Source of the DNA: a virus
Taxonomy: Duplodnaviria > Heunggongvirae > Uroviricota > Caudoviricetes
Virus record (IMG/VR): IMGVR_UViG_642973540_000001
Strand: one strand, 5' to 3'
Length of the DNA: 64,000 nucleotides
This document shows, piece after piece, positions 1,536-63,422 of this stretch. Each line of letters begins with the position of its first letter. Position 1 is the stretch's first letter. Position numbers and translations under genes: made by a program. Under the pieces are notes generated by a model. The model was given only the letters and a program-made list of their open reading frames with translations. It was not told where the DNA came from and did not search any database.

Positions 1536-1545
1536 CCAAATTTAT

Positions 1546-1617
1546 GTCGTAGAAGGCAAATGGTTAGCCACCTGACCTTCAATCAGTTGCTCGCGGGTTC
1601 GAATCCCGTCTACGACT
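1546..1617 (+). tRNA. tRNA-Glu (TTC) probable; C at position 33
   Basis: acceptor GTCGTAG/CTACGAC, loop CCTTCAA, T-arm GCGGG-TTCGAAT-CCCGT, CCA encoded. Confidence 0.6.
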
Positions 1618-1629
1618 CCAAAATAAAGT

Positions 1630-1658
1630 TTGACAGGTACTTTGAATTCTGTCAGTAT
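1630..1658 (+). promoter_or_regulatory. sigma70-like promoter TTGACAGG-N17-CAGTAT
   Basis: -35 consensus, weaker -10. Confidence 0.4.
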
Positions 1659-1732
1659 GGGTCAGTAGCTTAATTGGGAAAGCATCTCACTTGCAATGAG
1701 AAGGATGAGGGTTCAAGTCCCTCCTGTATCCA
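1659..1732 (+). tRNA. tRNA-Ala (TGC) with imperfect acceptor/T-arm junction
   Basis: anticodon arm TCTCA-CTTGCAA-TGAGA, D-stem GCTT/AAGC, T-arm GAGGG-TTCAAGT-CCCTC, G3-U70 possible, ACCA 3' end; two acceptor mismatches. Confidence 0.55.
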
Positions 1733-1913
1733 CCAAAACTTTAATGGTCTGGTCAAATTCTCCCTTAGAATCTTGACTGATAAACTCTCTGTAAGGATTC
1801 GCGGTTGCTTGCAGAGCTTTGGGATAGCATCTTCTAAGTCACGTGCTGAAGAATGCGAAATTGGAATGACCTTGCCGAAACGGTTAGTTTGTCCAGAGCC
1901 ATTAAAGTTTTAT

Positions 1914-1985
1914 AGCGGGATGGAGCAGTGGTAGCTTGCCAGTTTCATTATCTGGAGGTCGTAGGTTCGAATCCTACTCCCGCTT
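1914..1985 (+). tRNA. tRNA with CAT anticodon (Met or Ile-lysidine)
   Basis: acceptor AGCGGGA/TCCCGCT, loop TTCATTA, T-T at 31-39, T-arm GTAGG-TTCGAAT-CCTAC. Confidence 0.7.
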
Positions 1986-1996
1986 CCAAATTTAAA

Positions 1997-2069
1997 GGGT
2001 TTGAAGCACATATGGATGTGCGGCTGGCTGTTAACCAGATGGTAGTGGGTTCGAGTCCCACCTTTCCCG
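1997..2069 (+). tRNA. tRNA-Asn (GTT) with three T-T mismatches in acceptor stem
   Basis: acceptor GGGTTTG/CTTTCCC, D-stem GCAC/GTGC, loop CTGTTAA, T-arm GTGGG-TTCGAGT-CCCAC, CCA encoded. Confidence 0.6.
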
Positions 2070-2078
2070 CCAATTTAT

Positions 2079-2158
2079 GCGTCTATGGCAGAGATGGTCA
2101 ATGCAGCGGTCTGTAAAACCGCCCCGAAAGGTTACTGGTTCGAGTCCAGTTAGGCGCA
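2079..2158 (+). tRNA. tRNA-Tyr (GTA), type II
   Basis: acceptor GCGTCTA/TAGGCGC, anticodon arm GCGGT-CTGTAAA-ACCGC, long variable arm, CCA encoded. Confidence 0.85.
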
Positions 2159-2167
2159 CCAAACAAT

Positions 2168-2238
2168 TGCGAAGTAGTGAAATGGCATCATACTGGTTTC
2201 ATTATCCGGTGTAGGTAGTTCGAATCTACCCTTCGCAT
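2168..2238 (+). tRNA. tRNA with CAT anticodon (Met or Ile-lysidine)
   Basis: perfect acceptor TGCGAAG/CTTCGCA, loop TTCATTA, T-arm GGTAG-TTCGAAT-CTACC. Confidence 0.75.
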
Positions 2239-2320
2239 CCAAATTACTCAGTTTGGGTTGTTCTGAGTGACGTGTAGGGTATTACCCTTTAGAGCGTCGA
2301 ATCAAAGACTCCTTAAAGTT

Positions 2321-2394
2321 GGGGATGTGGCAGACTTGGTAATTGTACCGCACTGTCTATGCGGAATATGAGGGTTCAAATCCCTTCATCCTCG
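2321..2394 (+). tRNA. tRNA-Asp (GTC)
   Basis: acceptor GGGGATG/CATCCTC, anticodon arm CCGCA-CTGTCTA-TGCGG, T-loop TTCAAAT. Confidence 0.75.
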
Positions 2395-2624
2395 CCAATT
2401 TCACCGGAAAGACTTAAAGTCCAACTGGTAACTGCCGTCTGGTATATGCGGTGATTCTACTTTGTAGCGTTCCTCTTATGAGGTGAATGGATGTCTCCTT
2501 TCCAAAGCACATTTAGATGAAATATACAGGTCTACAGCTTTTACTTAAACGTTTCACCTCCTTGCGTTTAAGGTTTGGGCTACATAACTGAGTAGTCTCG
2601 CTCAGGGCGACAGAGAGACAAAAT

Positions 2625-2712
2625 GGAAGGGCAAATCGACTGGCGACGAAAACGGTCTTGAAAACCGCCGAGCGTTAATAGCGCCTTGAGGGTTCGACTC
2701 CCTCTCCTTCCG
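2625..2712 (+). tRNA. tRNA-Ser (TGA), type II
   Basis: acceptor GGAAGGG/TCCTTCC, loop CTTGAAA, long variable arm, T-arm GAGGG-TTCGACT-CCCTC, GCCA end. Confidence 0.75.
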
Positions 2713-2716
2713 CCAC

Positions 2717-2788
2717 GGTCTAATTAGCTTATATGGTAAAGCAACGGTCTGAAAAGCCGTGGAACAGGGTTCGAATCCCGATAGACCG
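2717..2788 (+). tRNA. tRNA-Phe (GAA)
   Basis: anticodon arm ACGGT-CTGAAAA-GCCGT, acceptor GGTCTAA/ATAGACC, CCA encoded. Confidence 0.75.
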
Positions 2789-2798
2789 CCAAATTCAA

Positions 2799-2871
2799 CG
2801 GTGTGTAACTCAATTGGCAGAGTGGGTGGCTTTTAACCACAGGGTTGCAGGTTCGATGCCTGTCACACCGA
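2799..2871 (+). tRNA. tRNA-Lys (TTT)
   Basis: acceptor CGGTGTG/CACACCG, D-stem ACTC/GAGT, loop CTTTTAA, T-arm GCAGG-TTCGATG-CCTGT. Confidence 0.8.
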
Positions 2872-2881
2872 CCAAACAAAT

Positions 2882-2955
2882 GGACTATTAACTCAACTGG
2901 TCAGAGTACCCGACTCTTAATCGGGAGGTTCAGGGTTCGACTCCCTGATAGTCTA
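2882..2955 (+). tRNA. tRNA-Lys (CTT)
   Basis: acceptor GGACTAT/ATAGTCT, anticodon arm CCCGA-CTCTTAA-TCGGG, T-arm CAGGG-TTCGACT-CCCTG. Confidence 0.75.
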
Positions 2956-2969
2956 CCAAATTTCTTAGT

Positions 2970-3042
2970 AGTGGTATGGCAGAGATGGTCATGCACTTCC
3001 TTCATACGGAAGATTACATCGGTTCAAGTCCGATTACCACTT
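2970..3042 (+). tRNA. tRNA with CAT anticodon (Met or Ile-lysidine); CCA not encoded
   Basis: perfect acceptor AGTGGTA/TACCACT, arm CTTCC-TTCATAC-GGAAG, T-arm ATCGG-TTCAAGT-CCGAT, 3' end followed by TCTA. Confidence 0.75.
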
Positions 3043-3056
3043 CTAAGAGATTTAAT

Positions 3057-3128
3057 TGTGGGTTAGCATAAATGGTAATGCAGACGGCTGATAACCGTCA
3101 GAAGAGGGTTCGATACCCTCACCTACGA
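3057..3128 (+). tRNA. tRNA-Ile (GAT)
   Basis: anticodon arm GACGG-CTGATAA-CCGTC, T-arm GAGGG-TTCGATA-CCCTC, CCA encoded. Confidence 0.8.
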
Positions 3129-3138
3129 CCAAACAATC

Positions 3139-3210
3139 GGGGTATGGAGTAATTGGCAACTCTACGGTTTTTGAGGCCGTCAGTTTTCGGTTCGAATCCG
3201 AATGCCCCCG
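3139..3210 (+). tRNA. tRNA-Gln (TTG)
   Basis: acceptor GGGGTAT vs ATGCCCC(C), loop TTTTGAG, T-loop TTCGAAT; one-nt irregularity at 3' acceptor. Confidence 0.7.
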
Positions 3211-3219
3211 CCAAAAAAT

Positions 3220-3293
3220 GCACCCTTAGAACAACTGGACAGTTCCGCTGTCTTCTAAACAGCTAGTTACAGGTTCGAGTCCTGTAGGGTGTG
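3220..3293 (+). tRNA. tRNA-Arg (TCT)
   Basis: acceptor GCACCCT/AGGGTGT, arm GCTGT-CTTCTAA-ACAGC, T-arm ACAGG-TTCGAGT-CCTGT. Confidence 0.8.
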
Positions 3294-3380
3294 CCAAAAA
3301 TGGGTGATTCTGCAACGGTGGAGCTAGGCCAGCTTTGAAGCCGTAAAATGGGAATGTGGTATCGACTTACGATAGTTGTT

Positions 3381-3465
3381 GAAAGTGATTTGTGAAGCCG
3401 GACTAACAGATTATGAGTAAATGGCGACAATACGTTGTAGAGAGGTTCGAATCCTTAATCACTCG
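3381..3465 (+). tRNA. tRNA-like element: canonical T-arm + acceptor 3' strand + CCA, but no recognisable anticodon arm; matching 5' acceptor strand GGGTGAT lies about 160 nt upstream (3302)
   Basis: AGAGG-TTCGAAT-CCTTA-ATCACTC-G-CCA at 3441-3468; 5' partner GGGTGAT at 3302-3308. Confidence 0.35.
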
Positions 3466-3476
3466 CCAAATTTAGG

Positions 3477-3505
3477 TTGACAGGTGAAACAAACTCCTGT
3501 AATCT
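3477..3505 (+). promoter_or_regulatory. sigma70-like promoter TTGACAGG-N17-TAATCT
   Basis: consensus hexamers. Confidence 0.5.
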
Positions 3506-3713
3506 TTACCGTAGTTTTCGTTGAGTATGCTTCTATTTTTATCATTTAAAATAAATGCAAATGATGCTCAATTTCTGGCAGTGGCGTAATAGCTAAACAC
3601 CAGTAGGGTCTTCCGACTCCCTATCACCGAATTCGGCGTAGAGTTGTCCCGTCTATGATTGCCAAACGGGGCTTCAACCTAAAAGGTTCTTACGAGAGTC
3701 TTTCAGATTGAAT

Positions 3714-3787
3714 GGCGTAATATCCCAATTGGCAGAGGAAGCAGGTTCAAACCCTGTTCAGTGTGGGTTCGACTCCCACTTACGCTA
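3714..3787 (+). tRNA. tRNA with CAA (Leu) anticodon but type-I (short variable loop) architecture
   Basis: acceptor GGCGTAA/TTACGCT, arm GCAGG-TTCAAAC-CCTGT, 5-nt variable loop, T-arm GTGGG-TTCGACT-CCCAC. Confidence 0.6.
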
Positions 3788-3919
3788 CCAGATTCAGATG
3801 TCTTTGTAATCGTCCCTGAAATGACGGGGCAATTAAGGAGGTGGTCTGTATCTCCTGACTGTCAGGATAACCAGTAGAGCGTTAACAACACTGAGAAGTG
3901 TGGTAACTCGCTTGATAAT

Positions 3920-3992
3920 GCAAGTATGATGTCAACTGGTAACATGGCGTCCTTCCAAGTCGCTCTTACGGGTTCGAATCCCGTTACTTGCT
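3920..3992 (+). tRNA. tRNA-Gly (TCC)
   Basis: perfect acceptor GCAAGTA/TACTTGC, D-stem ATGT/ACAT, loop CTTCCAA, T-arm ACGGG-TTCGAAT-CCCGT. Confidence 0.8.
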
Positions 3993-4001
3993 CCAAACAA
4001 T

Positions 4002-4074
4002 AGGGGATTAGTTTAACTGGCAAAATGTCGGCCTCCAAAACCGCACGTTGAGGGTTCGAATCCCTCATCCCCTG
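4002..4074 (+). tRNA. tRNA-Trp (CCA); weak anticodon stem; CCA not encoded
   Basis: perfect acceptor AGGGGAT/ATCCCCT, loop CTCCAAA as in E. coli tRNA-Trp, T-arm GAGGG-TTCGAAT-CCCTC. Confidence 0.7.
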
Positions 4075-4086
4075 TCAATTCAGAAT

Positions 4087-4158
4087 GCCTCCATCATATA
4101 AGGGCTATTATGCCTGTTTTGTAATCAGGTCATCGCGGTTCGAATCCGTGTGGGGGCA
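4087..4158 (+). tRNA. tRNA-Thr (TGT)
   Basis: acceptor GCCTCCA/TGGGGGC, loop TTTGTAA with T-T at 31-39, T-arm CGCGG-TTCGAAT-CCGTG. Confidence 0.75.
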
Positions 4159-4168
4159 CCAAAACTAT

Positions 4169-4241
4169 ACTCGTATAGCTCAGATGGTAGAGCGGCATCT
4201 TTACACGTTGCTGGTCAGGCGTTCGAGTCGCCTTGCGAGTA
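4169..4241 (+). tRNA. tRNA-Val (TAC)
   Basis: acceptor ACTCGTA/TGCGAGT, D-arm GCTC-AGATGGTAGA-GCGG, loop TTTACAC, T-arm AGGCG-TTCGAGT-CGCCT. Confidence 0.8.
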
Positions 4242-4250
4242 CCAAACAAT

Positions 4251-4325
4251 GGCTGTGTAGCCCAACTTGGCAGAGGCACTACGCTAAGAACGTATACAGT
4301 GAGAGTTCGAATCTCTCCACAGCTA
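4251..4325 (+). tRNA. tRNA, anticodon ambiguous (loop CTAAGAA reads AAG; Leu-like, type-I)
   Basis: acceptor GGCTGTG/CACAGCT, T-arm GAGAG-TTCGAAT-CTCTC, CCA encoded. Confidence 0.55.
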
Positions 4326-4334
4326 CCAAACAAT

Positions 4335-4408
4335 AGCCCTTTATCTTAAATGGATAGAGACTCAAGCTACGAACTTGAGAGGTTTGGGTTCGAATCCCAA
4401 AAGGGCTT
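4335..4408 (+). tRNA. tRNA-Arg (ACG)
   Basis: perfect acceptor AGCCCTT/AAGGGCT, arm TCAAG-CTACGAA-CTTGA, T-arm TTGGG-TTCGAAT-CCCAA. Confidence 0.85.
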
Positions 4409-4413
4409 CCAAT

Positions 4414-4487
4414 AGGATGTTCGTATAGTTGGCCTATTACACCGGACTCTGAATCCGGTTACGATGGTTCGAATCCATCACGTCCTG
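4414..4487 (+). tRNA. tRNA-Gln (CTG)
   Basis: acceptor AGGATGT/ACGTCCT, arm CCGGA-CTCTGAA-TCCGG, T-arm GATGG-TTCGAAT-CCATC. Confidence 0.8.
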
Positions 4488-4496
4488 CCAAACAAT

Positions 4497-4570
4497 AGGT
4501 GATTACCCCAATTGGCAGAGGGTAGGAGCTTAAACCTCCGATGTTGAGAGTTCGAATCTCTCATCACCTA
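4497..4570 (+). tRNA. tRNA with TAA (Leu) anticodon but type-I architecture
   Basis: perfect acceptor AGGTGAT/ATCACCT, arm AGGAG-CTTAAAC-CTCCG, 5-nt variable loop, T-arm GAGAG-TTCGAAT-CTCTC. Confidence 0.65.
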
Positions 4571-4575
4571 CCAAT

Positions 4576-4650
4576 GGAGTTGGTATCATAAATGGATAAT
4601 GACCCTGACTGTGAATCAGGTCTATGCGGGTTCGAATCCCGTCCTTCTCC
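4576..4650 (+). tRNA. tRNA-His (GTG) with G-1 and two T-T mismatches in acceptor stem
   Basis: G-1 + GAGTTGG/CCTTCTC + C73, D-stem TCAT/ATGA, arm CCTGA-CTGTGAA-TCAGG, T-arm GCGGG-TTCGAAT-CCCGT. Confidence 0.8.
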
Positions 4651-4659
4651 CCAAATTCT

Positions 4660-4749
4660 GGAAGATTAACCCTAAAAGGTAAGGGAAGTGTTTGCTAAAC
4701 ACTCAGTAACCGAGAAATCGGCGTACCAGTTCAAGTCTGGTATCTTCCT
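4660..4749 (+). tRNA. tRNA-Ser (GCT), type II
   Basis: perfect acceptor GGAAGAT/ATCTTCC, arm AGTGT-TTGCTAA-ACACT, long variable arm, T-arm ACCAG-TTCAAGT-CTGGT. Confidence 0.85.
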
Positions 4750-4769
4750 CCAATTCGTAAAGGTGTGAA

Positions 4770-7639: not shown

Positions 7640-9088
7640 ATGACAATGGCTCAGAATGAAATTAATCCACCTCTGCCAGCCTTTCAAAAAGACGAGATGG
7701 GGTCTCTTGGACTCAAGGTAATCTCAGGTCGTCTGTTTGAAGAGCCACGTAGAAATCTCAGATTCCCTGAGAGTATCAAGACATTCCAGATTATGATGCG
7801 TGACCCTGCAATTGCAGCTTCAATTAACATTTTGAAGACTTTGGTCAGAAGAGTCAACTGGCGTTTCGATGCTCCAGAGGGATTTGATGCAAAGGACTAT
7901 GAGGAACGTATCAAGTTCTTTGAAACGCTGAAAGGCGATATGGACGTTGAGTGGGGTGACTTCATCAACTCAATTATGTCTATGTGCGTTTACGGATTCA
8001 GCCTCCATGAGAAGGTTTACAAGGTTCGTAAAGGCAAAAAGGGTAAGTACCCATCACGTTACAATGACAAACTGATTGGTTGGGCTAAACTCCCTATCCG
8101 TAGTCAGACAACTATCGACAAGTGGATTTTCGATGATGAAAACCGTGAGTTGATTGGTGCTCGTCAGAACTTGGGTCTTATTCCACACCTTGCAGGTTCA
8201 ACTGTCAAGAACTTCATTGAACTGCCACGCTCCAAATTCATGCTTTTCCGCTATGATGATGAGATTGGTAACCCTGAAGGTCGCTCACCGTTGCTGAACG
8301 CTTATGTGCCGTGGAAATACAAGGTGCAGATTGAAGAGTTCGAGGCAATGGGCGTGAGTCGAGATTTGGTTGGTATGCCTATGATTGGTCTTCCACCTGA
8401 ATATCTGGACAGAGATGCAGACCCTGAAAAGAAAGCCTTTGCAGCTTACTGTCAGAATATCATCAACGACATTAACGCCAACAACCGTGCTGGACTTCTG
8501 TTCCCACGTATGATTGACCCTGAATCGAAGATGGATATGTTCGAGTTCAAGCTGGTCAGTAAACAAGGTGCTAAGTCGTACAACACTGATGAAATCATTG
8601 ACAGATATTCAAAACAGATTATGATGTCATTCATGTCAGACGTTCTGGCAATGGGACAGAGTAAGTATGGTTCATACAGCTTGGCAGACTCGAAGACAAG
8701 TCTTCTTGCAATGTCAGTTGAAACCATTCTGCGTCAGATTCAAAACGTAATCAACAAAGATTTGATTCCTCAGACTTACTCACTCAACCAGTGGGATGAT
8801 GAAGAGCATGTACGAATCGTCTTTGAAGACATCGAGAAACCTGACCTTGAAAACATCGCTGCTTTCATCCAACGTTGTATCTCTGTAGGTGCAATGGAAG
8901 TTGATAAGAGCATGTCAACATATCTGCGTGGTCTTCTTGGTCTTCCTGAAGCTGATGAATCGGCTCCGGTATCTGAAAAGCTGTCTCCTAACAGCCAATC
9001 AAAAGCTGGTGAAGGTTACAAAACATCAGGTGAAGGGACAGCAAAGAGTCCATCAGGTCGTGATGAATCCGTTGCACGAAAAGGGTAA
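7640..9088 (+). CDS. portal protein
   Basis: 482 aa immediately after terL; synteny. Confidence 0.75.
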   Translation: MTMAQNEINPPLPAFQKDEMGSLGLKVISGRLFEEPRRNLRFPESIKTFQIMMRDPAIAASINILKTLVRRVNWRFDAPEGFDAKDYEERIKFFETLKGDMDVEWGDFINSIMSMCVYGFSLHEKVYKVRKGKKGKYPSRYNDKLIGWAKLPIRSQTTIDKWIFDDENRELIGARQNLGLIPHLAGSTVKNFIELPRSKFMLFRYDDEIGNPEGRSPLLNAYVPWKYKVQIEEFEAMGVSRDLVGMPMIGLPPEYLDRDADPEKKAFAAYCQNIINDINANNRAGLLFPRMIDPESKMDMFEFKLVSKQGAKSYNTDEIIDRYSKQIMMSFMSDVLAMGQSKYGSYSLADSKTSLLAMSVETILRQIQNVINKDLIPQTYSLNQWDDEEHVRIVFEDIEKPDLENIAAFIQRCISVGAMEVDKSMSTYLRGLLGLPEADESAPVSEKLSPNSQSKAGEGYKTSGEGTAKSPSGRDESVARKG

Positions 9089-9094
9089 TCGCTA

Positions 9095-9589
9095 ATGGCA
9101 GAAGATACCTTGACACTCAGCTTTAAAGTTCGTGTGTCAGACTATCGCCAAGAGCAATCATCAGAATCTGGTCAGTTGACTGTGAGTCAAGGAGTAAATA
9201 TCTTTGGCTCCGGTCAGACTGATGGGAAGAGTGGACAGATTACTTTATGCAGACATACTGACGTTTCATTGGCTGGTGAGGACTTTATCAGAGGTTCTTA
9301 TCATCCAGTGGTCAGTTTCCCATTTGGGAGTGCTATGAAGTTATCTTTCCAACTGTATGATTGTAAAGGTAAAAAGCTGGATGCACAGACCTTATCTGCT
9401 GCATACATCGCAATTGGTGAGTTGTCACACCCCGCTACTCTCAACTCAGATGGGACTATTTCATACTTATTTTTGAAAAGTGATTATAAAGTGCTTGTCA
9501 AAGGTCAGATTTATGATACAGTGTTATCTGTAGTGGATAGTCAAGGGAACAACTCAATCGTTTCCAAACAACTTATAAGGTTGGATTAA
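9095..9589 (+). CDS. hypothetical head-module protein
   Basis: ORF track, coupled to portal stop. Confidence 0.55.
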   Translation: MAEDTLTLSFKVRVSDYRQEQSSESGQLTVSQGVNIFGSGQTDGKSGQITLCRHTDVSLAGEDFIRGSYHPVVSFPFGSAMKLSFQLYDCKGKKLDAQTLSAAYIAIGELSHPATLNSDGTISYLFLKSDYKVLVKGQIYDTVLSVVDSQGNNSIVSKQLIRLD

Positions 9590-50189: not shown

Positions 50190-51263
50190 ATGGCTTTAAC
50201 CGATGCTGAGAAGCATAATAAATTCACCCTTTCAAAAATTCCTGCTACTGTAAAGCTGGCCTACTTTGACTCTGACCCAATCGCCTATCGTGGTGCATTT
50301 GCTGTAGAGAAGACTAAGTATCGCTTTACCAACTCAGAGACCTTTGAAGAGTCTCCCCCATTCCTGAGTGCCAAAGATGCTAAGTCTTGGCTTGATGGTC
50401 AGCAAGACATCGCAGAGTCAATCGGTATCGAGTTCCGCAAACAAGATTGGGTTCGCTATGACTGGAAAGAACCTCTCTCAGTCGAAGAGGCAATCAAGGC
50501 TACACAGGACGTTCTTCAGGCTTATATCAAGGCTTCTGGTGTCCATGAAGATGACTGGATGGGCTTCTTGACCCAACGTGGTGTTGAGAAAACGAAAGAC
50601 TTGCCGGGACTTGAACACCAATATCAAGGTAACCGCTCAGGGTTTACACCAACCCATCTTGACGCAACTCGTCAGCATCTTATTGACAAGTCACAGATGC
50701 ACTTACTGTCTGATGGATTTGAGGCTGATGCCGCTGTAATCGCAATGGGTGAACGTAAAGGTAAACGTGCAGTTATCCTGTCACTTGATAAAGATTTACG
50801 TCAGTTGATGGGTGGTTACATGCTTGACATGTCCTATGACAAAGCCCCTCTCATCTTCAACACAGTTGATAACCCTCTTGGTGATGTCTGGCGATGTCCT
50901 ATCAAGTCAAAGCCTAAGCAGCCCCCTAAGTATGTTGGTTGTGGCTTCAAATGGCTTTGCTATCAGGCATTAGCTGGTGACCCTTCAGATGGTTACTACG
51001 GTATCTCTGGAGTTGGTGGTGCAGCGATTATCAAACTTCTTGATGAGTGTGAAACAATTCACCAGTGCTTAGACGCAATCTATGCCCTCTACAAGAAGAA
51101 GTTCCCTGAAGGGTACACTTACACCTCTTGGGACGGTACAGAGCAGCACAGGACTCCTGAAGAGCTTATGACGCAGCATTTCATGTTACCTTATCAGGAA
51201 CGCAGCATGGATGATGTATTCTCCTTTGAAAAATATGGTTGGAGTTTTAATATGAATGGATAA
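50190..51263 (+). CDS. flap endonuclease / 5'-3' exonuclease (T5 D15 / T4 RNase H family)
   Basis: GFEADAAVIA and ILSLDKDLRQL motifs, H3TH GISGVGGAAI; ATG 50190 with AAGAGGAA SD (track start 50145 lies inside terminator). Confidence 0.8.
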   Translation: MALTDAEKHNKFTLSKIPATVKLAYFDSDPIAYRGAFAVEKTKYRFTNSETFEESPPFLSAKDAKSWLDGQQDIAESIGIEFRKQDWVRYDWKEPLSVEEAIKATQDVLQAYIKASGVHEDDWMGFLTQRGVEKTKDLPGLEHQYQGNRSGFTPTHLDATRQHLIDKSQMHLLSDGFEADAAVIAMGERKGKRAVILSLDKDLRQLMGGYMLDMSYDKAPLIFNTVDNPLGDVWRCPIKSKPKQPPKYVGCGFKWLCYQALAGDPSDGYYGISGVGGAAIIKLLDECETIHQCLDAIYALYKKKFPEGYTYTSWDGTEQHRTPEELMTQHFMLPYQERSMDDVFSFEKYGWSFNMNG

Positions 51264-51771
51264 GCTACCCCGTTACGGTCATTGGGTGTCTCTCTGCGGA
51301 GAGATTAACCCTGAGAAACTTTTCGGTTTCGTCTATGTCGTCTACAACAAGGCGCATAACAGATTTTACATCGGAAAGAAACAATTCTTTTCAGTTACTA
51401 AGAAAAAAATTGTTGGAAAAGTCAGAAGAAAGACTTGCATCAAGGATTCAGATTGGCTAAGATACTTAACATCTTCTGAGTACGTTAAGAAGGATATTGA
51501 AGAGCTTGGAAAAGATAACTTCGAGTTCTTTATCATCGAAACGTATGAAACGAAGTCAGGGTTAGTATACGCTGAAGCGAACCTTCAACATAAGTTTGAT
51601 GTGATGCAAAAAGCTGTTGACTCTGATGTTCGAAAGTTTTACAATGCAAATGTTGCTGCTATCAAGTTCCTCGTAAAAGAGATTAAACCTGTAGCAGCTA
51701 AAAGAATCAAACAACTCATTGAATATAAAGAGGCTCAACATGTTCGCAATTCTGAAAAAACTGTTCTCTGA
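51256..51771 (+). CDS. GIY-YIG homing endonuclease
   Basis: FVYVVYNKAHNRFYIGKK GIY-YIG core; basic C-terminal DNA-binding region. Confidence 0.7.
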   Translation: MDKLPRYGHWVSLCGEINPEKLFGFVYVVYNKAHNRFYIGKKQFFSVTKKKIVGKVRRKTCIKDSDWLRYLTSSEYVKKDIEELGKDNFEFFIIETYETKSGLVYAEANLQHKFDVMQKAVDSDVRKFYNANVAAIKFLVKEIKPVAAKRIKQLIEYKEAQHVRNSEKTVL

Positions 51772-52066: not shown

Positions 52067-52813
52067 ATGTATGTAACTACTAAAAATCCTGTCCATCTTT
52101 GGAACATCCGTGCTGGTCTGAATGCTGCAAAGCGTTACTCACCTGAATACTGGAAAGCATTAGAGAATCAGGCTGAACGAATGATGGAAGAGTTGAAAGA
52201 GACTATCCAAGCTATTCGTGAGCGTGATGCGTTGGGTCTGATTGACGGTCAGGTTGACATGGACTTCGTTCTGCAAGGTTTCACTTACCTTTCGCAGTTT
52301 GACCATGAAGCAGCACTGAACCGTGTATGTGACAATAACGATTTGAAAATCACGACTGATGCTGGTACAGCACTTCGTTGGTTGGATGAGCATTCTGAAA
52401 AAGACCCTCAGACTGCATACGAAATTGTCTCAACAGAAGTTAATGGTGTTACTCATTACAGCGTTCACCGCTTGAGTGACAACAAGGTGATTAAGCCTCT
52501 TAACCATCCTACAGTAACACTGTACGACTTGGTAGCAGGTAACACCGAAATCTTTGTAGCGTCTAAAGAGTCATGCACTCAGTGCAAGTCTATCATCAAG
52601 ACACTGGAAGACCTCGGTTATGTATTCACCGTTCTTGACCTTGACAACTCAGAAGCAGATAAAGAGTTTGCTGATGAAGTTGGTATTGACATCGGCTGTG
52701 TAGCGTTCTTTAACGGCGAGTCTGTCTCAAAGATTTCAGTTGGTTCAGGTCATGATAAAGAGTTTGTAAGTAACTGGTTGAAAGGGGTAGGTGCTAATGG
52801 AAAAGCTGATTGA
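52067..52813 (+). CDS. putative MazG-like NTP pyrophosphohydrolase fused to glutaredoxin-like C-terminal domain (CTQC)
   Basis: N-terminal EE-rich helices; C-terminus IFVASKESCTQCKSIIKTLEDLGY thioredoxin-fold motif. Confidence 0.4.
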   Translation: MYVTTKNPVHLWNIRAGLNAAKRYSPEYWKALENQAERMMEELKETIQAIRERDALGLIDGQVDMDFVLQGFTYLSQFDHEAALNRVCDNNDLKITTDAGTALRWLDEHSEKDPQTAYEIVSTEVNGVTHYSVHRLSDNKVIKPLNHPTVTLYDLVAGNTEIFVASKESCTQCKSIIKTLEDLGYVFTVLDLDNSEADKEFADEVGIDIGCVAFFNGESVSKISVGSGHDKEFVSNWLKGVGANGKAD

Positions 52814-57621: not shown

Positions 57622-57629
57622 CAACTCAA

Positions 57630-57652
57630 GGGACTCTTCGGAGTCCTTTTTT
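57630..57652 (+). terminator. terminator GGGACTC-TTCG-GAGTCC-TTTTTT (family copy 5)
   Basis: exact repeat. Confidence 0.8.
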
Positions 57653-58912: not shown

Positions 58913-58935
58913 GGGACTCTTCGGAGTCCCTTTTT
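58913..58935 (+). terminator. terminator GGGACTC-TTCG-GAGTCCC-TTTTT (family copy 6)
   Basis: exact repeat. Confidence 0.8.
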
Positions 58936-58942
58936 ATTTGAG

Positions 58943-59209
58943 GTGTCTATGTCTCGTCAGTATCTGTTTTACAAACCACGTCAAAGTCTGTACTATGTAA
59001 TGTCAGGTGACGCCAAAATCAAAGGTGATGATGGTGAATGGCACAACGGTAAAGTCTATGTTGCAATTGATGGTTGCCAGTGCTATTGTCGTCCTGACAG
59101 TATGTTCGAAGAAGACAAATGGGAGTTTCTGACACATGAACAAGCAAGAGATTACTACCGTCGATATTACGGAGACCTCAACACCCCACGTGGTTCAAAT
59201 ATCATTTAA
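58943..59209 (+). CDS. hypothetical Cys-containing protein (88 aa)
   Basis: ORF track; overlapping alternative ORF 59136..59327 not resolved. Confidence 0.45.
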   Translation: MSMSRQYLFYKPRQSLYYVMSGDAKIKGDDGEWHNGKVYVAIDGCQCYCRPDSMFEEDKWEFLTHEQARDYYRRYYGDLNTPRGSNII

Positions 59210-59336
59210 GGGTGAAACGTGGTTTGAATATCTGGATGAGATGCGGGAAAGAACCTACATCAAGTTTGATTCAGAGAGTTCAGCACGAAGAGGTTTAAGA
59301 ATCTATTGCAATTCTCTCGCAGGTTAGTTAGTATGA

Positions 59337-59359
59337 GGACTCTTAATTGAGTCCTTTTT
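59337..59359 (+). terminator. terminator variant GGACTC-TTAATT-GAGTCC-TTTTT
   Basis: same stem as family, different loop. Confidence 0.7.
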
Positions 59360-59375: not shown

Positions 59376-59888
59376 ATGTACTCAGAAGCTGTAGCAGTAA
59401 TCATGACAGTTGTCAACCTTGACTTTCAAGACCGTGAAGACTTTCTGTTCAGTCATAAGTATGACCGTCAGAACTCTAACTGGATGAAACTGAACCACGA
59501 AGGGTTGACACGCAAAAAGATTATTGCACGTTACTTCCCACACTACACAGTTGACAATCTCTACGAACACTGCTTCTTCAAAAACTTCATCACAGTCATC
59601 AATGAAGAGTTTGGTTTAGAGAAGAATCACCAGTTCACTTTAGGTCATCACATCCCATTGAACAAGGGTGGTGCTCACCATGTAAGCAACTGGTTTATCC
59701 AGACGAAGAAGGATAACCAGATTCAGGGTGATAACTTACCAGACTGTCCACTGATGAGCTATGACGAACAAATTGATTACCTGTTCAATCATCTGTTGAA
59801 TCACTCAACAATCAACGGTATGCACAGTGAGAGGTTCATCAAGTACGCTTTAAAATACTCAGGAGTTTACAATGAAAGCAGTCTATAA
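59376..59888 (+). CDS. HNH endonuclease
   Basis: HHIPLNKGGAHHVSNWFIQTKKDN HNH motif. Confidence 0.7.
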   Translation: MYSEAVAVIMTVVNLDFQDREDFLFSHKYDRQNSNWMKLNHEGLTRKKIIARYFPHYTVDNLYEHCFFKNFITVINEEFGLEKNHQFTLGHHIPLNKGGAHHVSNWFIQTKKDNQIQGDNLPDCPLMSYDEQIDYLFNHLLNHSTINGMHSERFIKYALKYSGVYNESSL

Positions 59889-60168
59889 CTTTGTCTGTAA
59901 AGTCAATCCGTGGTGGTTCTTCAACAAAGAAGACCTGTCACCGAAACGCTGTCCAGATTGTCTGTCCAAAAGTTTTTACAGTGTTGCAAAAGACGTGTCA
60001 GATTATCTTCTTTTAGAAGCAGAATACCGTTGCAACTGTTGTGATAGTGTCGTACAGTATTGGTCATACGGGAACTTTGACCCCGCTTACCTTCCTCCGA
60101 AAGGACGTGAAGAACATCGTCAAAGACAAAATGAAATGATAACATTTGGAGAAGTCCCACATGATTAG
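59872..60168 (+). CDS. zinc-ribbon protein (CPDC...CNCC)
   Basis: two Cys pairs. Confidence 0.5.
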   Translation: MKAVYNFVCKVNPWWFFNKEDLSPKRCPDCLSKSFYSVAKDVSDYLLLEAEYRCNCCDSVVQYWSYGNFDPAYLPPKGREEHRQRQNEMITFGEVPHD

Positions 60169-61006
60169 TTTAGCTGTGAACCATCAGAACGTAGCTGTAT
60201 CACGAACCGTCTTCCCTGCTGGAGAGGTTGGAGTCAGCCTTGATGTTATGGGTCTGAAGAAAGCCTTGAACGGTAGCAATACGATTGAGGTTGCAATCCA
60301 CACTCAGGGTTATGAGCCGAACATGCTTATCACCATCATGCAGATTAAAGAGGCACTGAATCAGTTCTTCTTACCTTACATGGTGAAGCCTCGTTACATC
60401 CTCATGCTGGCCTACATGCCGTTCTCTCGCTATGACCGTCACATGTATCGCGGTGATGCTTTCGGTCTGAAGGTCTTTGCTCAGGTTATCAACAGCATGA
60501 ACTTTGACATGGTTGTTACTCTGGATGCACACAGTGACGTGACAGCCGCTGTAATCAACAACCTGTACAACATCCCTCAAGTGGATGCACTGATGACTCA
60601 CCGTTTCTTACGCGACTATGATGTAGTTGTCGCACCAGATGCAGGTGCAGAGAAGAAAGCAACCGCTGCTGCAAAAGCTATGCAGTGTGAGTTAGCGACT
60701 CTGGTCAAACATCGTAACGTGATGACTGGCGAAATCACTGGTATGGGTCTGTCAACTGGTATTGTCAAGAATCAGAATTGCCTGATTGTAGATGATTTGT
60801 GTGATGGTGGTGCTACGTTTGTACACGCTGCTGCAAAACTTTTCACTCTCGGTGCAAAATCTGTTGACTTGTATGTGACTCACGGAGTATTCTCTAAGGG
60901 TACTGAAGTTCTGCGAAATGCAGGGATTGAGAACATTTACACCACGAACTCCTTCGAACAGGAAGGTAACGGTGTCAACTTTGTCGGCTACGGCTCACTT
61001 ATTTAA
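60161..61006 (+). CDS. prs: ribose-phosphate pyrophosphokinase-like enzyme (Prs/ADPR-PP synthetase family)
   Basis: DAHSD and PRPP-binding LIVDDLCDGGATF motifs; ATG 60161 with GGAGAAG SD. Confidence 0.85.
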   Translation: MISLAVNHQNVAVSRTVFPAGEVGVSLDVMGLKKALNGSNTIEVAIHTQGYEPNMLITIMQIKEALNQFFLPYMVKPRYILMLAYMPFSRYDRHMYRGDAFGLKVFAQVINSMNFDMVVTLDAHSDVTAAVINNLYNIPQVDALMTHRFLRDYDVVVAPDAGAEKKATAAAKAMQCELATLVKHRNVMTGEITGMGLSTGIVKNQNCLIVDDLCDGGATFVHAAAKLFTLGAKSVDLYVTHGVFSKGTEVLRNAGIENIYTTNSFEQEGNGVNFVGYGSLI

Positions 61007-61019
61007 TAGGAAACTGAAC

Positions 61020-62849
61020 ATGAACAATACACTGATTGCCACCCTGATTTGCGATGCGTACAAGTCCGGTCATAAATTCCAATACCCTGCGGGGCTGGAT
61101 TCACTGTTCCTGAACATTACTCCACGTAATGCTAAGTATTTCCCAGGCGGCACAGACGTTGTTGCGAACTTCGGTTCAACTGCTTTCCGTGACACTTGGC
61201 TGGTCAAGTTCTGGAACGAGCATTTCTTTGACCTTCCAAAAGATGTTGTCATGGAAATTCATGAGATGTACATGGACGGTGTACTTGGTAAAGGTACTCT
61301 GACACATGACCACATCGCAGCACTGCATGACTTAGGCTACCTGCCAATCATTGTTCGTGCTTTACCGGAAGGGACTGTATCACCTGTCAAGGTTCCTGTG
61401 ATGACCATTGAAACGACTCACAAAGACTTTGCATGGGTTGGTGGTTACCTTGAAGACCTGTTCAGTTCTAACCTGTGGAAGGTTATGACCATTGCAACCA
61501 TCGCAATGAAGTATCGTGTTCTTCTGGAGCGTTTCGCTGAAGAAACTGGTGTTGATAAAGGCTTCGTTGATTATCAGGCTCATGACTTTGCCCTTCGTGG
61601 TATGTCAGGTGTTCATGATGACATTCAGCACAACATCGGTCATCTGGCATTCTTCAAAGGGACTGACTCATTCCCTGCGACTTGGGCTATCAAGCAGTTT
61701 TATGGTGATGTCAAGGTTAGTGACATTGCAGGTTCTGTTCCAGCAACTGAACACAGCGTTACCTGTGCAAACATTGCTGTTGAAGCAAGTCAAATGGTTC
61801 TGGCATCTGGTGAGTTAGGTGATGGTAATCCACAGTCGAAAGCAGCACTGCTGGCTAAAGCGGAACAGAATTTCTTCCACCGTCTGCTGACTGAGGTCTA
61901 TCCAACTGGTATTCTGTCAGTAGTTGGTGACACTAACAACTGGTATGATACAGTGACTACCAAAGTACGTGAATTGAAAGATGTCATCATGAAGCGTGAA
62001 GGTAAACTGGTTCTCCGTCCTGACTCTGGTATTCCAGAGCATATCGTGGCAGGTTACCGCTGCATCGAGATTGAGAACGCTAAGGCTGTCATTGCTGAAG
62101 AGTACAAGTCAGGCCGTCTTGGTTGGGCTTCAGTTCTGGAAAGCAACCTTGCTGACATCAAAGAGTTGACCATTGATAAGTTGACTGCAAATGATTGTCA
62201 GATTATCAAAAACGCTGGCTTTGAAGTGGTGGTCGATGCTGAAGACTTTGACGGTGCATACTGTGTCTTCCTTGATGAGAAGATTGCAAAACCATCTGTC
62301 AAGGTTGGTCGCTACGTTCAGATTGAGGTTCTGGAAGGTGCTGTAGAATCTCTGTGGAAAATCTTTGGTGGTGATGTCACAACTAAAGGCTACAAGGTTC
62401 TGGATGAGCATATCGGCCTGATTTACGGTGACTCAATCACTCTGGAACGTGCAGGGAACATCTTGCAACGACTGAAAGAGCGTGGATTCGCAAGCTGTAA
62501 CGTTGTGTTCGGTGTAGGTTCATTCACTTACCAGATGATTACACGTGACTCTCTCAGCTTTGCTATCAAGGCGACTGTGGCGACTGTGGACGGTATCAAC
62601 TACCCACTGTCAAAAGACCCAATCACCGATGACGGCACTAAGAAGTCTGCAACTGGTTACATCATCGTTCGTGATACCGGAACAGGTGAACCGCTGCACA
62701 TGGTTGATGGTCTGAGTCGTCAAGCATACGACAACCTGAACCAGCAAGGTTTGAATGAACTCCGTGTGATTTTTGCAGACGGTGAGTCAATCAACTACGA
62801 TGAGAACATTCTCACAATCCGTGACAAGTTCTTGAAAAACATGAAGTAA
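61020..62849 (+). CDS. nadV: nicotinamide phosphoribosyltransferase-like enzyme (NAMPT/NadV family)
   Basis: 609 aa, NAMPT-family sequence from MNNTLIATLICDAYKSGH; 14 nt after prs-like stop. Confidence 0.85.
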   Translation: MNNTLIATLICDAYKSGHKFQYPAGLDSLFLNITPRNAKYFPGGTDVVANFGSTAFRDTWLVKFWNEHFFDLPKDVVMEIHEMYMDGVLGKGTLTHDHIAALHDLGYLPIIVRALPEGTVSPVKVPVMTIETTHKDFAWVGGYLEDLFSSNLWKVMTIATIAMKYRVLLERFAEETGVDKGFVDYQAHDFALRGMSGVHDDIQHNIGHLAFFKGTDSFPATWAIKQFYGDVKVSDIAGSVPATEHSVTCANIAVEASQMVLASGELGDGNPQSKAALLAKAEQNFFHRLLTEVYPTGILSVVGDTNNWYDTVTTKVRELKDVIMKREGKLVLRPDSGIPEHIVAGYRCIEIENAKAVIAEEYKSGRLGWASVLESNLADIKELTIDKLTANDCQIIKNAGFEVVVDAEDFDGAYCVFLDEKIAKPSVKVGRYVQIEVLEGAVESLWKIFGGDVTTKGYKVLDEHIGLIYGDSITLERAGNILQRLKERGFASCNVVFGVGSFTYQMITRDSLSFAIKATVATVDGINYPLSKDPITDDGTKKSATGYIIVRDTGTGEPLHMVDGLSRQAYDNLNQQGLNELRVIFADGESINYDENILTIRDKFLKNMK

Positions 62850-62857
62850 TTTACAAA

Positions 62858-62880
62858 GGGACTCTTCGGAGTCCTTTTTT
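62858..62880 (+). terminator. terminator GGGACTC-TTCG-GAGTCC-TTTTTT (family copy 7)
   Basis: exact repeat. Confidence 0.8.
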
Positions 62881-62890: not shown

Positions 62891-62920
62891 TTGACAACGC
62901 TATACCGAATCGCTTAAAGT
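62891..62920 (+). promoter_or_regulatory. promoter-like TTGACA-N17/18-TTAAAGT
   Basis: perfect -35, weak -10. Confidence 0.35.
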
Positions 62921-62960: not shown

Positions 62961-63422
62961 ATGAATCGTCGTATCACTGCTGTATCGAAAGACTTCTACA
63001 ATCGTCGTATGGGTGAACTGGTAAAGCAATTCCCTAACGTGTTCAACAAGTCTCTCCCTATGCCGCTGGCGATTGGTGTTCACAAAGTTCTTGCAGAGCA
63101 GACTGACTTCACTCGTAAAGAAATCAATGCGCTGCTTTCAGTATGGACTCGTCGTCATGAGTATGTCTGTGCAGCCGTCACTCACGGTTTCCGTGTAGAC
63201 CTTAACGGTGAGTTCGTTGAAGAAATCTCAGAAGAGCATCTGTATGGCTTCAGCCGTGCGTTTGACAATCTGACCAAAAAGCAGAAAGCTGGATTCACTC
63301 GTCGCTGGAACCGTGCTGATACCACTGACCAGTTTGTCTGTGAACCGTTTGAATGCTACGTTGAAGCAAAGGTTGAAGAGCCTGTGCAAACCGAAGAGGT
63401 ATGTCAAGAATGCCTGATTTAA
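62961..63422 (+). CDS. ProQ/FinO-domain RNA-binding protein homologue (153 aa) with C-terminal Cys-rich tail
   Basis: aligns with E. coli ProQ N-terminal domain: FPNVF..PLAIGV..L..W..YV..GFRVDLNGE; GAGGAAA SD. Confidence 0.75.
   Translation: MNRRITAVSKDFYNRRMGELVKQFPNVFNKSLPMPLAIGVHKVLAEQTDFTRKEINALLSVWTRRHEYVCAAVTHGFRVDLNGEFVEEISEEHLYGFSRAFDNLTKKQKAGFTRRWNRADTTDQFVCEPFECYVEAKVEEPVQTEEVCQECLI

Follow-up and report, generated by a model that had tools for sequence, protein, structure and literature searches.

Does an adjacent pair of prs-like and NAMPT-like genes in a phage genome serve classical pyridine salvage, or does it rebuild NAD+ from the products of its depletion by host defences? 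The locus lies in a 64,000-nt stretch of DNA (the window), which is 100% identical to Erwinia phage phiEa21-4 (Ounavirinae; genus Kolesnikvirus; EU710883/NC_011811), a phage of Erwinia amylovora with a genome of 84,576 bp, the first 20.6 kb of which fall outside the window. The adjacent pair described in an earlier sequence-only reading was borne out: ORFs of 281 aa (gp113) and 609 aa (gp114) are present, and their Pfam and PHROGs families agree with that description (PF00156 and PF14572 with PHROG 619 'ribose-phosphate pyrophosphokinase', E 8e-88, for gp113; PF04095 with PHROG 448 'nicotinamide phosphoribosyl transferase', E 2e-169, for gp114). The spacing of 14 nt given there is the stop-to-start distance and the intergenic stretch is 13 nt (61007-61019). 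The Prs-family and the NAMPT-family gene lie on the same strand, within the 10 genes used as the linkage limit for NAD+ reconstitution pathway 1 (NARP1).

NARP1 was defined by deletion of genes 79-80 of Escherichia phage Bas63 in the paper that discovered it (Osterman et al., bioRxiv 10.1101/2024.02.11.579819). Table S1 of that paper lists EU710883_00138, identical in sequence to gp113, with 'Namat within 10 genes: Yes' and as its own tree representative, and Table S2 lists EU710883_00139, the exact gp114 sequence, as 'Adps-associated'. Taking these listings together with the comparisons below, we put at about 0.9 the probability that gp113 and gp114 constitute a NARP1 counter-defence module, as predicted from their sequences. 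The pair is a typical copy of phage NARP1 that was already known, and its description here is a re-annotation rather than a discovery. The features of the locus are collected in Table 1.

Table 1. Features of the NARP1 locus of phiEa21-4, in window coordinates
Feature	Positions	Strand	Start codon or basis
Terminator-like hairpin, 20 nt upstream of ORF 59376	59335..59356	+	Sequence; without RefSeq annotation
Upstream co-oriented ORF gp111a, 170 aa	59376..59888	+	PHROG 3500; syntenic counterpart of bas63_0077
Upstream Cys-rich ORF gp112, 98 aa	59872..60168	+	PHROG 2993; syntenic counterpart of bas63_0078
adps, predicted ADPR-pyrophosphate synthetase (Prs-family), gp113, 281 aa	60161..61006	+	ATG; ORF, families, Osterman Table S1
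namat, predicted nicotinamide ADPR-transferase (NAMPT-family), gp114 ('nadV'), 609 aa	61020..62849	+	ATG; Osterman Table S2
Selectivity-clamp loop (SCL) PRNAKYF, gp114	61122..61142	+	Alignment; rule from PMC12774641
Insertion 1 of 'long-form' Namat, gp114 residues about 252-279	61773..61856	+	Alignment
Insertion 2 of 'long-form' Namat, gp114 residues about 346-434, after RPDSGIPEHIVAGY	62055..62321	+	Alignment, AF2
Selectivity-clamp helix (SCH) motif GSFTYQMITRD, gp114 residues 500-510	62517..62549	+	Alignment; motif defined in PMC12774641
Intrinsic terminator, GGGACTC-TTCG-GAGTCC and T-run, closing the cassette	62855..62878	+	Sequence, RefSeq regulatory feature

The substrates, products and anti-defence phenotype given here for gp113 and gp114 we infer by homology from proteins 36-46% identical to them. 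[quoted passage not shown] Such a route would need neither an NMN intermediate nor an NMN adenylyltransferase (NMNAT). Some NMN production by gp114 is possible as well, because in vitro Namat enzymes still act on PRPP as Nampts do (PMC12774641).

The DAHSD motif (residues 122-126, positions 60524-60538) and the PRPP loop LIVDDLCDGGATF (DDLCDGGATF, residues 211-220, positions 60791-60820), by which the gene had been recognised as a PRPP-synthetase family member, were both found in the gp113 ORF, while PF13793 (Pribosyltran_N) was not detected in it by the Pfam search. The catalytic Lys183 (codon 60707-60709; VKHRNVMTGEI) aligns with K162 of the SPbetaL1 Adps, to which gp113 is 36% identical. 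gp113 carries the Adps-type motifs K-x-R-x-x-x-TGEI, HSDV and DDxCDGGxTF, the counterparts of which in Prs are KRRPRANVSQ, HAEQIQGFF and DDMIDTGGT. An Adps profile made from 13 Namat-linked homologues outside the Ounavirinae scored gp113 at 241 bits versus 133 for E. coli Prs, the one cellular comparison. Against the NCBIfam Prs equivalog models gp113 reached 60-102 bits and missed all the cut-offs (296-536), the best scores being those for NF002095 (102 bits; cut-off 296) and NF002320 (102 bits; cut-off 297); the biochemically proven SPbetaL1 Adps likewise misses these cut-offs. With equivalog scores below the cut-offs and PF13793 without a match, gp113 was rejected as a class I PRPP synthetase (Prs). 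Its identity to E. coli Prs is 28% and covers the C-terminal two thirds only, the N- and C-terminal segments of Prs being absent from gp113. Overall, these comparisons place gp113 in the phage Adps group of the Prs family, apart from cellular Prs.

These data bear directly on classical pyridine salvage, in which gp113 would boost PRPP and gp114, as NadV, would make NMN for conversion to NAD+ by host NadR/NadD/PncC. Cellular Prs (E. coli Prs, human PRPS1/2) and Nampt/NadV (human NAMPT, Haemophilus ducreyi NadV (HdNadV), 9ke8) belong to the same superfamilies as the phage pair and share its chemistry, which is pyrophosphoryl transfer to ribose C1 followed by displacement by nicotinamide. The GenBank, RefSeq, PHROG and Pfam names agree with salvage, the cut-off of NCBIfam NF006629 is passed (425 versus 405), and gp113 marginally passes the broad subfamily model TIGR01251 (119 versus a cut-off of 113). 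Salvage annotations, however, carry no weight because proven NARP1 proteins bear the same ones. The production of NMN from PRPP by Namat-type enzymes in vitro is a further point for salvage, as is Met506, which weakens the fit of gp114 to the adenine clamp described below. But the SPbetaL1 Adps gave no product in a Prs activity test and converted ADPR to ADPR-PP, and the phiEa21-4 proteins group with Namat and Adps, not with Nampt and Prs. We consider salvage by this pair very improbable.

The phylogenetic comparison proposed in the sequence-only reading was run for gp114. In a small neighbour-joining (NJ) tree of 28 sequences, none of them a cellular Nampt, gp114 falls within a clade with 100% bootstrap support that includes the Namats of Bas63, SPbetaL1 and FADO, and with the Bas63 Namat it forms a 96% sub-clade; KVP40 NadV and five other phage Nampts fall outside. 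The best PDB sequence match of gp114 is the SPbetaL1 Namat (9w5x/9w5w, 394 bits), with human NAMPT at about 123 bits. Similarity scores alone are not decisive here, because the bona fide Nampt HdNadV reaches 332 bits. The AF2 model of gp114 (pLDDT 92.4) has as its best Foldseek match the same Namat, 9w5x (TMt 0.95). Residues D12, Y14, F190, R193, D216, H245, R333 and D335, which are catalytic or contact NAD, are conserved in gp114 and invariant across 56 homologues (His245 at 61752-54; Arg333 at 62016-18), and G470, D471, G500, S501, F502, T508, R509 and D510 are conserved as well. Clade, clamp motif, PDB sequence and fold matches thus support the assignment of gp114 as a predicted Namat rather than a Nampt.

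The published signature GS-X-phi-X-phi-X-phi-TRD separates Namat from Nampt (PMC12774641). The SCH of gp114 has the right length and register, with Phe502 at position 3, Tyr504 at position 5 and the TRD kept, and all 120 closest database homologues of gp114 carry the motif. KVP40 NadV has GGGLLQQLDRD at this place (Nampt-type GGGLLQ) and HdNadV has GAQTYQRNTRD; the adenine-clamp motif of gp114 is absent from HdNadV, and human NAMPT is reported to be without it (PMC12774641). The one deviation is at position 7, where gp114 has the non-aromatic Met506 and the published consensus is aromatic. Phe502 aligns with F392 of the SPbetaL1 Namat and Met506 stands for its Tyr396, which contacts adenine, although the single mutation Y396K costs only about 1.3- to 1.7-fold activity (PMC12774641). 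The Met variant recurs at position 7 in other Adps-linked Namats, and its occurrence at an adenine-contacting position of gp114 is a modest new point. The SCL, or beta1-beta2 loop, is expected to have Arg, Lys or Tyr at its third position together with a stacking residue, and in the Bas63-type loop the fourth residue stacks on adenine (PMC12774641). In gp114 the loop reads N37-A38-K39-Y40, its third residue being Lys and its fourth Tyr, an arrangement like that of Bas63 (Lys42-Trp43). This loop discriminates weakly because KVP40 NadV aligns K40-F41 at the same place. The earlier view that the chemistry of the pair cannot be told from motifs alone was too pessimistic, since the published Namat signature occurs in gp114 with a single deviation.

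Met506 also enters a dual-use explanation, in which the pair would rebuild NAD+ from ADPR under defence and would additionally make appreciable NMN and NAD+ from PRPP in undefended hosts, because Met506 would relax the clamp and the enzyme carries two insertions. The replacement of an aromatic residue at position 7 fits this, the clamp double mutants of the SPbetaL1 Namat keep NMN synthesis (PMC12774641), and the long-form insertions of gp114 are of uncharacterised function. Yet Phe502, Tyr504 and the K39-Y40 loop are intact, Met-variant Namats stay tightly linked to Adps genes, Bas63, also long-form, acts as NARP1 in vivo, and the SPbetaL1 Namat, when offered both substrates, made only NAD+. 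Dual use is, in our assessment, highly improbable.

NARP2, known from the Vibrio phage KVP40, pairs NadV (Nampt) with NatV (NMNAT/Nudix) and has the same purpose as NARP1, in that NAD+ is kept up during infection. KVP40 NadV has the NAMPT-family fold and catalytic residues of gp114 but is only 28-29% identical to it, prefers PRPP and has no Prs-like partner, and NARP2 needs an NMNAT. The phiEa21-4 pair could be of this type if an adenylyltransferase were encoded elsewhere in the genome or were too divergent. The first 20.6 kb are missing from the window, and RefSeq labels gp98 'NAD synthetase' and gp79 'tRNA nucleotidyltransferase'. However, tblastn of the whole 84,576-bp genome with KVP40 NatV, one query family, gave a best E of 1.4, and the GxFxPxHxGH motif was not found in any frame of phiEa21-4; the lack of an NMNAT noted earlier for the window thus extends to the whole genome. 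gp98 has a GIY-YIG SegE domain (PF19835, E 1.6e-28), gp114 lies outside the Nmnat-linked Nampt clade of KVP40, and Osterman et al. found no phage carrying both NARP1 and NARP2. With no NMNAT found in the genome by these searches and gp114 outside that clade, the pair was rejected as NARP2, which is very unlikely to be correct. The NAD+ reconstitution alternative raised by the sequence-only reading is instead favoured by the published listing, synteny, clade, SCH motif, PDB and fold matches and the lack of an NMNAT.

The closest characterised relative is Bas63 (Escherichia phage JohannRWettstein; Adps QXV81770, Namat QXV81771), which belongs to the Ounavirinae like phiEa21-4 but differs in genus and host. 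Its Adps (Bas63_0079) is 40% identical to gp113 and its Namat (Bas63_0080) 46% identical to gp114. The gene order in Bas63 (171-aa ORF, 92-aa ORF, adps, namat, then rIIA and rIIB) is common to phiEa21-4, although the immediate downstream genes differ, phiEa21-4 having a ProQ/FinO-domain gene, and the adps-namat gap is 45 nt in Bas63 versus 13 nt. The Bas63 Namat is likewise a long form that carries the two insertions and an SCL pairing Lys with an aromatic residue, but its SCH has Tyr494 at position 7 and Tyr at position 3, where gp114 has Met506 and Phe. The Bas63 operon is experimentally characterised. The NARP1 enzymes known from both biochemistry and structure are the SPbetaL1 Adps (WIT26982) and Namat (WIT26983; PDB 9w5x, 9w5w). 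F189, R192, D215, R306 and D308 of this Namat align with F190, R193, D216, R333 and D335 of gp114, its core residues D13 and Y15 correspond to D12 and Y14, and SCH length and register and the core fold (TM 0.95) are shared, but identity is only 39-49%, its SCL uses Arg40 in place of Lys39-Tyr40, and it is a short form (491 aa) that lacks the gp114 insertions, which measure about 28 and about 89 residues.

Insertion 1 is present in the Bas63 Namat and absent from the SPbetaL1 and FADO Namats and KVP40 NadV; the AF2 model has helices at 245-263 and 271-293 around it. Insertion 2, common to Bas63 and many phages with a 570-610-aa Namat, is predicted to form three helices and three short strands (pLDDT 73-91, dipping to 53 at 421-430) and gave no Pfam match. 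These uncharacterised insertions are a second modest new point, and together with Met506 they could form an uncharacterised module, one missing from the short-form enzyme that was crystallised.

A third is an Adpp-like Macro-domain protein, gp14, encoded in the same genome as the cassette about 9.6 kb away (record positions 8482-9264, outside the window). Vibrio phage Gary has an Adpp proven to be an ADPR-1''-phosphate phosphatase, and gp14 shares 33% identity with it across its full length. gp14 also has about 110 additional residues at the C-terminal end; its Bas63 counterpart is bas63_0095. The same core Adps-Namat pair occurs in NARP1-AP (Adps-Adpp-Namat, Gary) and in RyDEP-associated NARP1 (mycobacteriophage DyoEdafos). 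Among the four ORFs that the two terminators enclose and the two that follow downstream, none carried a Macro or RyR domain, and the phiEa21-4 cassette was rejected as an operon-type NARP1-AP or RyDEP-extended NARP1. gp14 could nevertheless, by homology, supply Adps with ADPR where defences of the aRES type yield ADPR-1''-P. Macro genes were counted in the published survey only if they were operon-linked, which is why phages of the phiEa21-4 type are not listed there. That Ounavirinae, including Bas63, have a NARP1-AP-like pathway 'in trans' via gp14, and that separately the insertions and Met506 form a regulatory or specificity module, is a speculative proposal which we hold to be rather unlikely.

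Salvage names ('ribose-phosphate pyrophosphokinase', 'nicotinamide phosphoribosyltransferase (NadV)') persist in public records, both for phiEa21-4 itself and for about 35 of its relatives among the Erwinia, Salmonella, Hafnia and Enterobacter phages; the genes so named are very likely an Adps/Namat counter-defence pair. Because Kolesnikvirus phages go into biocontrol cocktails against fire blight, this has some practical relevance: NARP1 should allow them to overcome abortive-infection systems that deplete NAD+ in Erwinia and Pantoea hosts.

A single transcription unit running from an HNH gene at 59376 to a UUCG terminator at 62858 had been proposed for the cassette. The terminator is real, with the stem AAAGGGACTC-TTCG-GAGTCCTTTT followed by a T-run and annotated in RefSeq (record positions 83435-83454). 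The start at 59376 did not hold up: no promoter was matched in the preceding 20 nt, which leave no room for one. Nor did the HNH label find support in Pfam, NCBIfam or PDB-sequence searches, the resemblance being at the motif level (GHHIPLNKGGAHHVSN). Homologues of this ORF (gp111a) in other phages are not adjacent to NARP1, and it is outside the core module. The hairpin upstream of gp111a is probably leaky, and the cassette is therefore likely read through from upstream promoters, which is the most likely way for transcription to enter it. The gp112 ORF overlaps adps by 8 nt.

The queried 3.7 kb of the window is 100% identical to Erwinia phage phiEa21-4 (Ounavirinae, Kolesnikvirus; EU710883 / NC_011811; 84,576 bp), and the window reaches the end of that record; subtracting 20,576 from a record position gives the window position. 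The sequence-only reading had described a Prs-like gene next to a NAMPT-like gene, and the ORF list, the raw sequence, Pfam and PHROGs all confirm this pair. The first protein, gp113, carries DAHSD (residues 122-126) and LIVDDLCDGGATF, matches PF00156 and PF14572 and falls in PHROG family 619 (E 8e-88); gp114 matches PF04095 and falls in family 448 (E 2e-169). The 13 intergenic nucleotides between the two genes contain an AGGAAA ribosome-binding site. RefSeq starts the second gene, which it names nadV, at GTG 60972, giving a product of 625 aa and an overlap with the 3' end of gp113. An alignment with homologues and the ribosome-binding site support the ATG at 61020 as the probable true start, which is also the one used by Osterman et al. 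(bioRxiv 10.1101/2024.02.11.579819).

Features in and around the adps-namat cassette (window positions)
Feature	Position	Strand	Description
Terminator-like hairpin	59335-59356	+	Variant of the GGGACTC-TTCG-GAGTCC hairpins
Small ORF	59376-59888	+	PHROG 3500; precedes adps in phiEa21-4 and Bas63
Small Cys-rich ORF	59872-60168	+	PHROG 2993; precedes adps in phiEa21-4 and Bas63
adps (gp113)	60161-61006	+	ATG-initiated ORF, 281 aa; ORF list and raw sequence
namat (gp114)	61020-62849	+	ATG-initiated ORF, 609 aa
Namat insertion 1	61773-61856		Residues ~252-279; missing from the crystallised SPbetaL1 enzyme and KVP40 NadV
Namat insertion 2	62055-62321		Residues ~346-434; missing from the crystallised SPbetaL1 enzyme and KVP40 NadV
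Strong intrinsic terminator	62855-62878	+	GGGACTC-TTCG-GAGTCC and T-run; directly 3' of namat
Promoter-like site	62891-62920	+	TTGACA-18-TAAAGT; 3' of the NARP1 terminator, for the next gene
ProQ/FinO-domain gene	62961-63422	+	153 aa; PF04352, E 3e-18; directly 3' of the NARP1 terminator

Such Prs-like/Nampt-like pairs in BASEL phages were the starting point from which Osterman et al. found NARP1 (NAD+ reconstitution pathway 1), the pathway formed by Adps and Namat. In that study, deletion of genes 79-80 from Bas63 (Escherichia phage JohannRWettstein, a Felixounavirus) made the phage sensitive to SIR2-HerA, independently of host pncC and nadR, and ADPR-pyrophosphate (ADPR-PP) built up in infected cells. 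SPbetaL1 Adps gave no product in a Prs-activity test and converted ADPR and ATP to ADPR-PP, from which SPbetaL1 Namat formed NAD+ with nicotinamide, preferring ADPR-PP over PRPP. Their Table S2 lists EU710883_00139, starting MNNTLIATLICDAYK, as 'Adps-associated'. The NARP1 system and this exact phiEa21-4 locus are already known in the literature, NARP1 in Kolesnikvirus is not discussed in the text of any paper found by our literature search, and what the present analysis still contributes is a corrected annotation, along with two leads of modest weight.

Local gene order around adps-namat is the same in phiEa21-4 and Bas63. The Bas63 series of bas63_0077 (171 aa), 0078 (92 aa), 0079 (adps), 0080 (namat), a few small ORFs, rIIA and rIIB corresponds to gp111a (170 aa), gp112 (98 aa), gp113, gp114, three small ORFs, rIIA and rIIB in phiEa21-4, in which the two rII genes sit at the start of the record. 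In BLASTP, the Adps proteins of the two phages are 40% identical and their Namats 46%.

As a Prs, gp113 scores poorly. The single cut-off that it clears, by a small margin (119 vs 113), is that of the broad TIGR01251 subfamily; the NCBIfam Prs equivalog models require 296-536 bits and give it 60-102, a pattern shared by the proven SPbetaL1 Adps. Pfam did not detect the N-terminal Prs domain PF13793 in gp113, and its top PDB match, human PRPS2, is confined to the C-terminal two thirds and reaches no more than 75 bits. Prs and Adps were compared by reciprocal profile scores with E. coli Prs as the sole cellular reference, and an Adps profile of 13 Namat-linked homologues outside the Ounavirinae, including SPbetaL1 and FADO, gave 241 bits for phiEa21-4 and 236 for Bas63 vs 133 for E. 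coli Prs. The catalytic lysine K162 of SPbetaL1 corresponds to K183 in gp113, and the motifs of gp113 are of the Adps type (K-x-R-x-x-x-TGEI, HSDV and DDxCDGGxTF; Prs equivalents KRRPRANVSQ, HAEQIQGFF and DDMIDTGGT).

For gp114, the alternative to be weighed is a Nampt. A PDB sequence search placed the SPbetaL1 Namat crystal structures 9w5x/9w5w first (394 bits), followed by 9ke8/9keo (332 bits) and mammalian NAMPT (~123 bits). The runner-up was considered as KVP40 NadV and rejected as such, with tblastn giving no phage match and Foldseek naming it as Haemophilus ducreyi NadV. Because this runner-up is a genuine Nampt, the PDB score alone cannot separate Namat from Nampt, and the similarity of gp114 to Namat on this measure is suggestive, not decisive. 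NCBIfam does not discriminate either: NF006629 accepts both enzymes, and release 20 holds no Adps- or Namat-specific model. We built a neighbor-joining tree (28 sequences, 488 trimmed columns, 200 bootstraps) from gp114, the experimentally supported Namats of Bas63, SPbetaL1 and FADO, 17 database homologues, a prs-adjacent Shewanella phage homologue and six phage Nampts (KVP40 NadV, those of a Slopekvirus, an Aeromonas straboviridae phage, CBB and XacN1, and a NadM-adjacent cyanophage gene). All Adps-linked proteins, including gp114, fell in one clade with 100% support and all six Nampts fell outside it, with gp114 and Bas63 together in a 'long-form' sub-clade (96%). The protein of Shewanella phage 1/40 (NC_025470 52658-55108) takes a basal position in the Namat clade; this strongly diverged homologue (~27% identical) is still encoded directly 3' of a Prs-like gene.

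Lan et al. (NAR 2026, PMC12774641) ascribed the ADPR-PP specificity of Namat to a selectivity-clamp helix (SCH) of consensus GS-X-phi-X-phi-X-phi-TRD and a variable selectivity-clamp loop (SCL) whose third residue is Arg, Lys or Tyr. The helix reads GSFTYQMITRD in gp114 (residues 500-510) vs GGGLLQQLDRD in KVP40 NadV, and a Namat-type helix is present in 120 of the 120 best homologues from a collection of 5.8 billion proteins. The loop, N-A-K39-Y40, is of the Bas63 type, where adenine stacking falls to the residue at position four. At SCH position 7, an adenine contact (Tyr396 in SPbetaL1; consensus Tyr or Phe), gp114 has Met506 (window 62535-62537). Methionine is also found there in other Namats (database homologues P0002, P0087 and P0105) that lie beside Adps-like genes, these neighbors scoring 237-267 bits on the Adps profile, and the Y396K single mutation of SPbetaL1 Namat costs only ~1.3- to 1.7-fold in activity (PMC12774641). 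Because methionine recurs in Adps-linked Namats and the cost of Y396K is small, Met506 was counted neither as a match nor as a failed match. gp114 keeps every catalytic and NMN-contact residue, and its AlphaFold2 model (pLDDT 92.4, pTM 0.92) matched Namat 9w5x best in Foldseek (TM 0.95 on the target, E 3e-53), then H. ducreyi NadV, then mammalian NAMPT.

Both insertions of gp114 recur in the Bas63 Namat and in many phage homologues that are 570-610 aa long. The second, for which Pfam gave no match, is predicted to fold as a small helical/beta module of three helices and three strands (pLDDT 73-91).

Plain salvage and NARP2 (Nampt with an NMN adenylyltransferase, NMNAT, as in the NadV and NatV of KVP40) were weighed as alternatives. 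The sequence-only reading had seen no NMNAT in the window. Its absence extends to the complete genome, in which tblastn with KVP40 NatV (NMNAT/Nudix) found nothing (best E 1.4) and a regular-expression search for GxFxPxHxGH gave no match in any frame; in the survey by Osterman et al., NARP1 and NARP2 never occurred together in one phage. The proposal of NAD+ reconstitution by Adps and Namat is supported by the published cataloguing, the Bas63 synteny, the clades, a specificity motif with one deviation and the lack of an NMNAT. We put at roughly 0.9 the probability that gp113-gp114 is a NARP1 pair regenerating NAD+ against NAD+-splitting defences; its chemistry is assigned by homology, and what was observed directly is how the genes are built, the families and clades to which their products belong, the conservation of catalytic and specificity residues, the shared gene order with an experimentally dissected operon and the lack of an NMNAT. 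Under attack by host SIR2, TIR or SEFIR effectors that split NAD+, gp113 would convert ADPR to ADPR-PP at the expense of ATP and gp114 would join nicotinamide to the latter, so that NAD+ would be regenerated and defences of the Thoeris I, DSR1/2, SIR2-HerA and SEFIR types would be neutralised.

Another gene with an NAD-related name is gp98 (window 51256-51771, +), 'NAD synthetase' in RefSeq and PHROG 447. The name is misleading: the protein has a SegE-type GIY-YIG domain (PF19835, E 1.6e-28) and no NAD role. Nearby, gp100 (52067-52813, +) joins a MazG-like pyrophosphohydrolase N-terminus (PF01503, weak) to a glutaredoxin-like C-terminus (PF00462, E 6e-5).

The accessory proteins known for NARP1, the Macro-domain Adpp and the RyR-domain RyDEP, were both absent from the phiEa21-4 cassette and its flanks in a Pfam-level search. 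Outside the window, ~9.6 kb from the operon, gp14 ('phosphatase', PHROG 335; NC_011811 8482-9264) opens with a Macro domain (residues 1-150), shares 33% identity with full-length Vibrio phage Gary Adpp, a proven ADPR-1''-phosphate phosphatase (pairwise E 1e-16), gives weak PDB matches to yeast Poa1p, and ends in an additional C-terminal region of ~110 aa. Its Bas63 orthologue, bas63_0095, is 45% identical. The aRES preprint tabulates Macro proteins from NARP1 operons, and neither the phiEa21-4 nor the Bas63 phage group is among them. Possibly, gp14 acts as a trans-encoded component of an Adps-Adpp-Namat (NARP1-AP) system.

The UUCG terminator proposed to close the cassette is indeed present and strong. 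Together with the hairpin at 59335-59356 it encloses four tightly packed, co-oriented ORFs ending with adps and namat. The transcription unit had been thought to begin with an HNH gene at 59376, and neither part of that claim found support. Searches of Pfam (with E values as high as 1 too), NCBIfam and PDB sequences returned no HNH match for the ORF, and the 20 nt between it and the upstream hairpin contain no promoter match. Transcription by read-through from promoter-like sites further upstream, such as 58968-58996, which follows the 58913 terminator, appears more likely. Homologues of the 59376 ORF in other phage groups, including Phapecoctavirus-like phages, sit away from NARP1.

Three near-identical plus-strand hairpins (GGGACTC-TTCG-GAGTCC with a T-run) lie at 57628-57649, 58913-58930 and 62855-62878, and RefSeq marks only the first and third. 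Beyond the last of these, the ProQ/FinO-domain gene apparently has its own TTGACA-18-TAAAGT promoter. At the other end of the window, positions 1247-4752 (+) hold a cluster of 27 tRNA genes, of which that at 1247-1319 received an odd two-base anticodon call.
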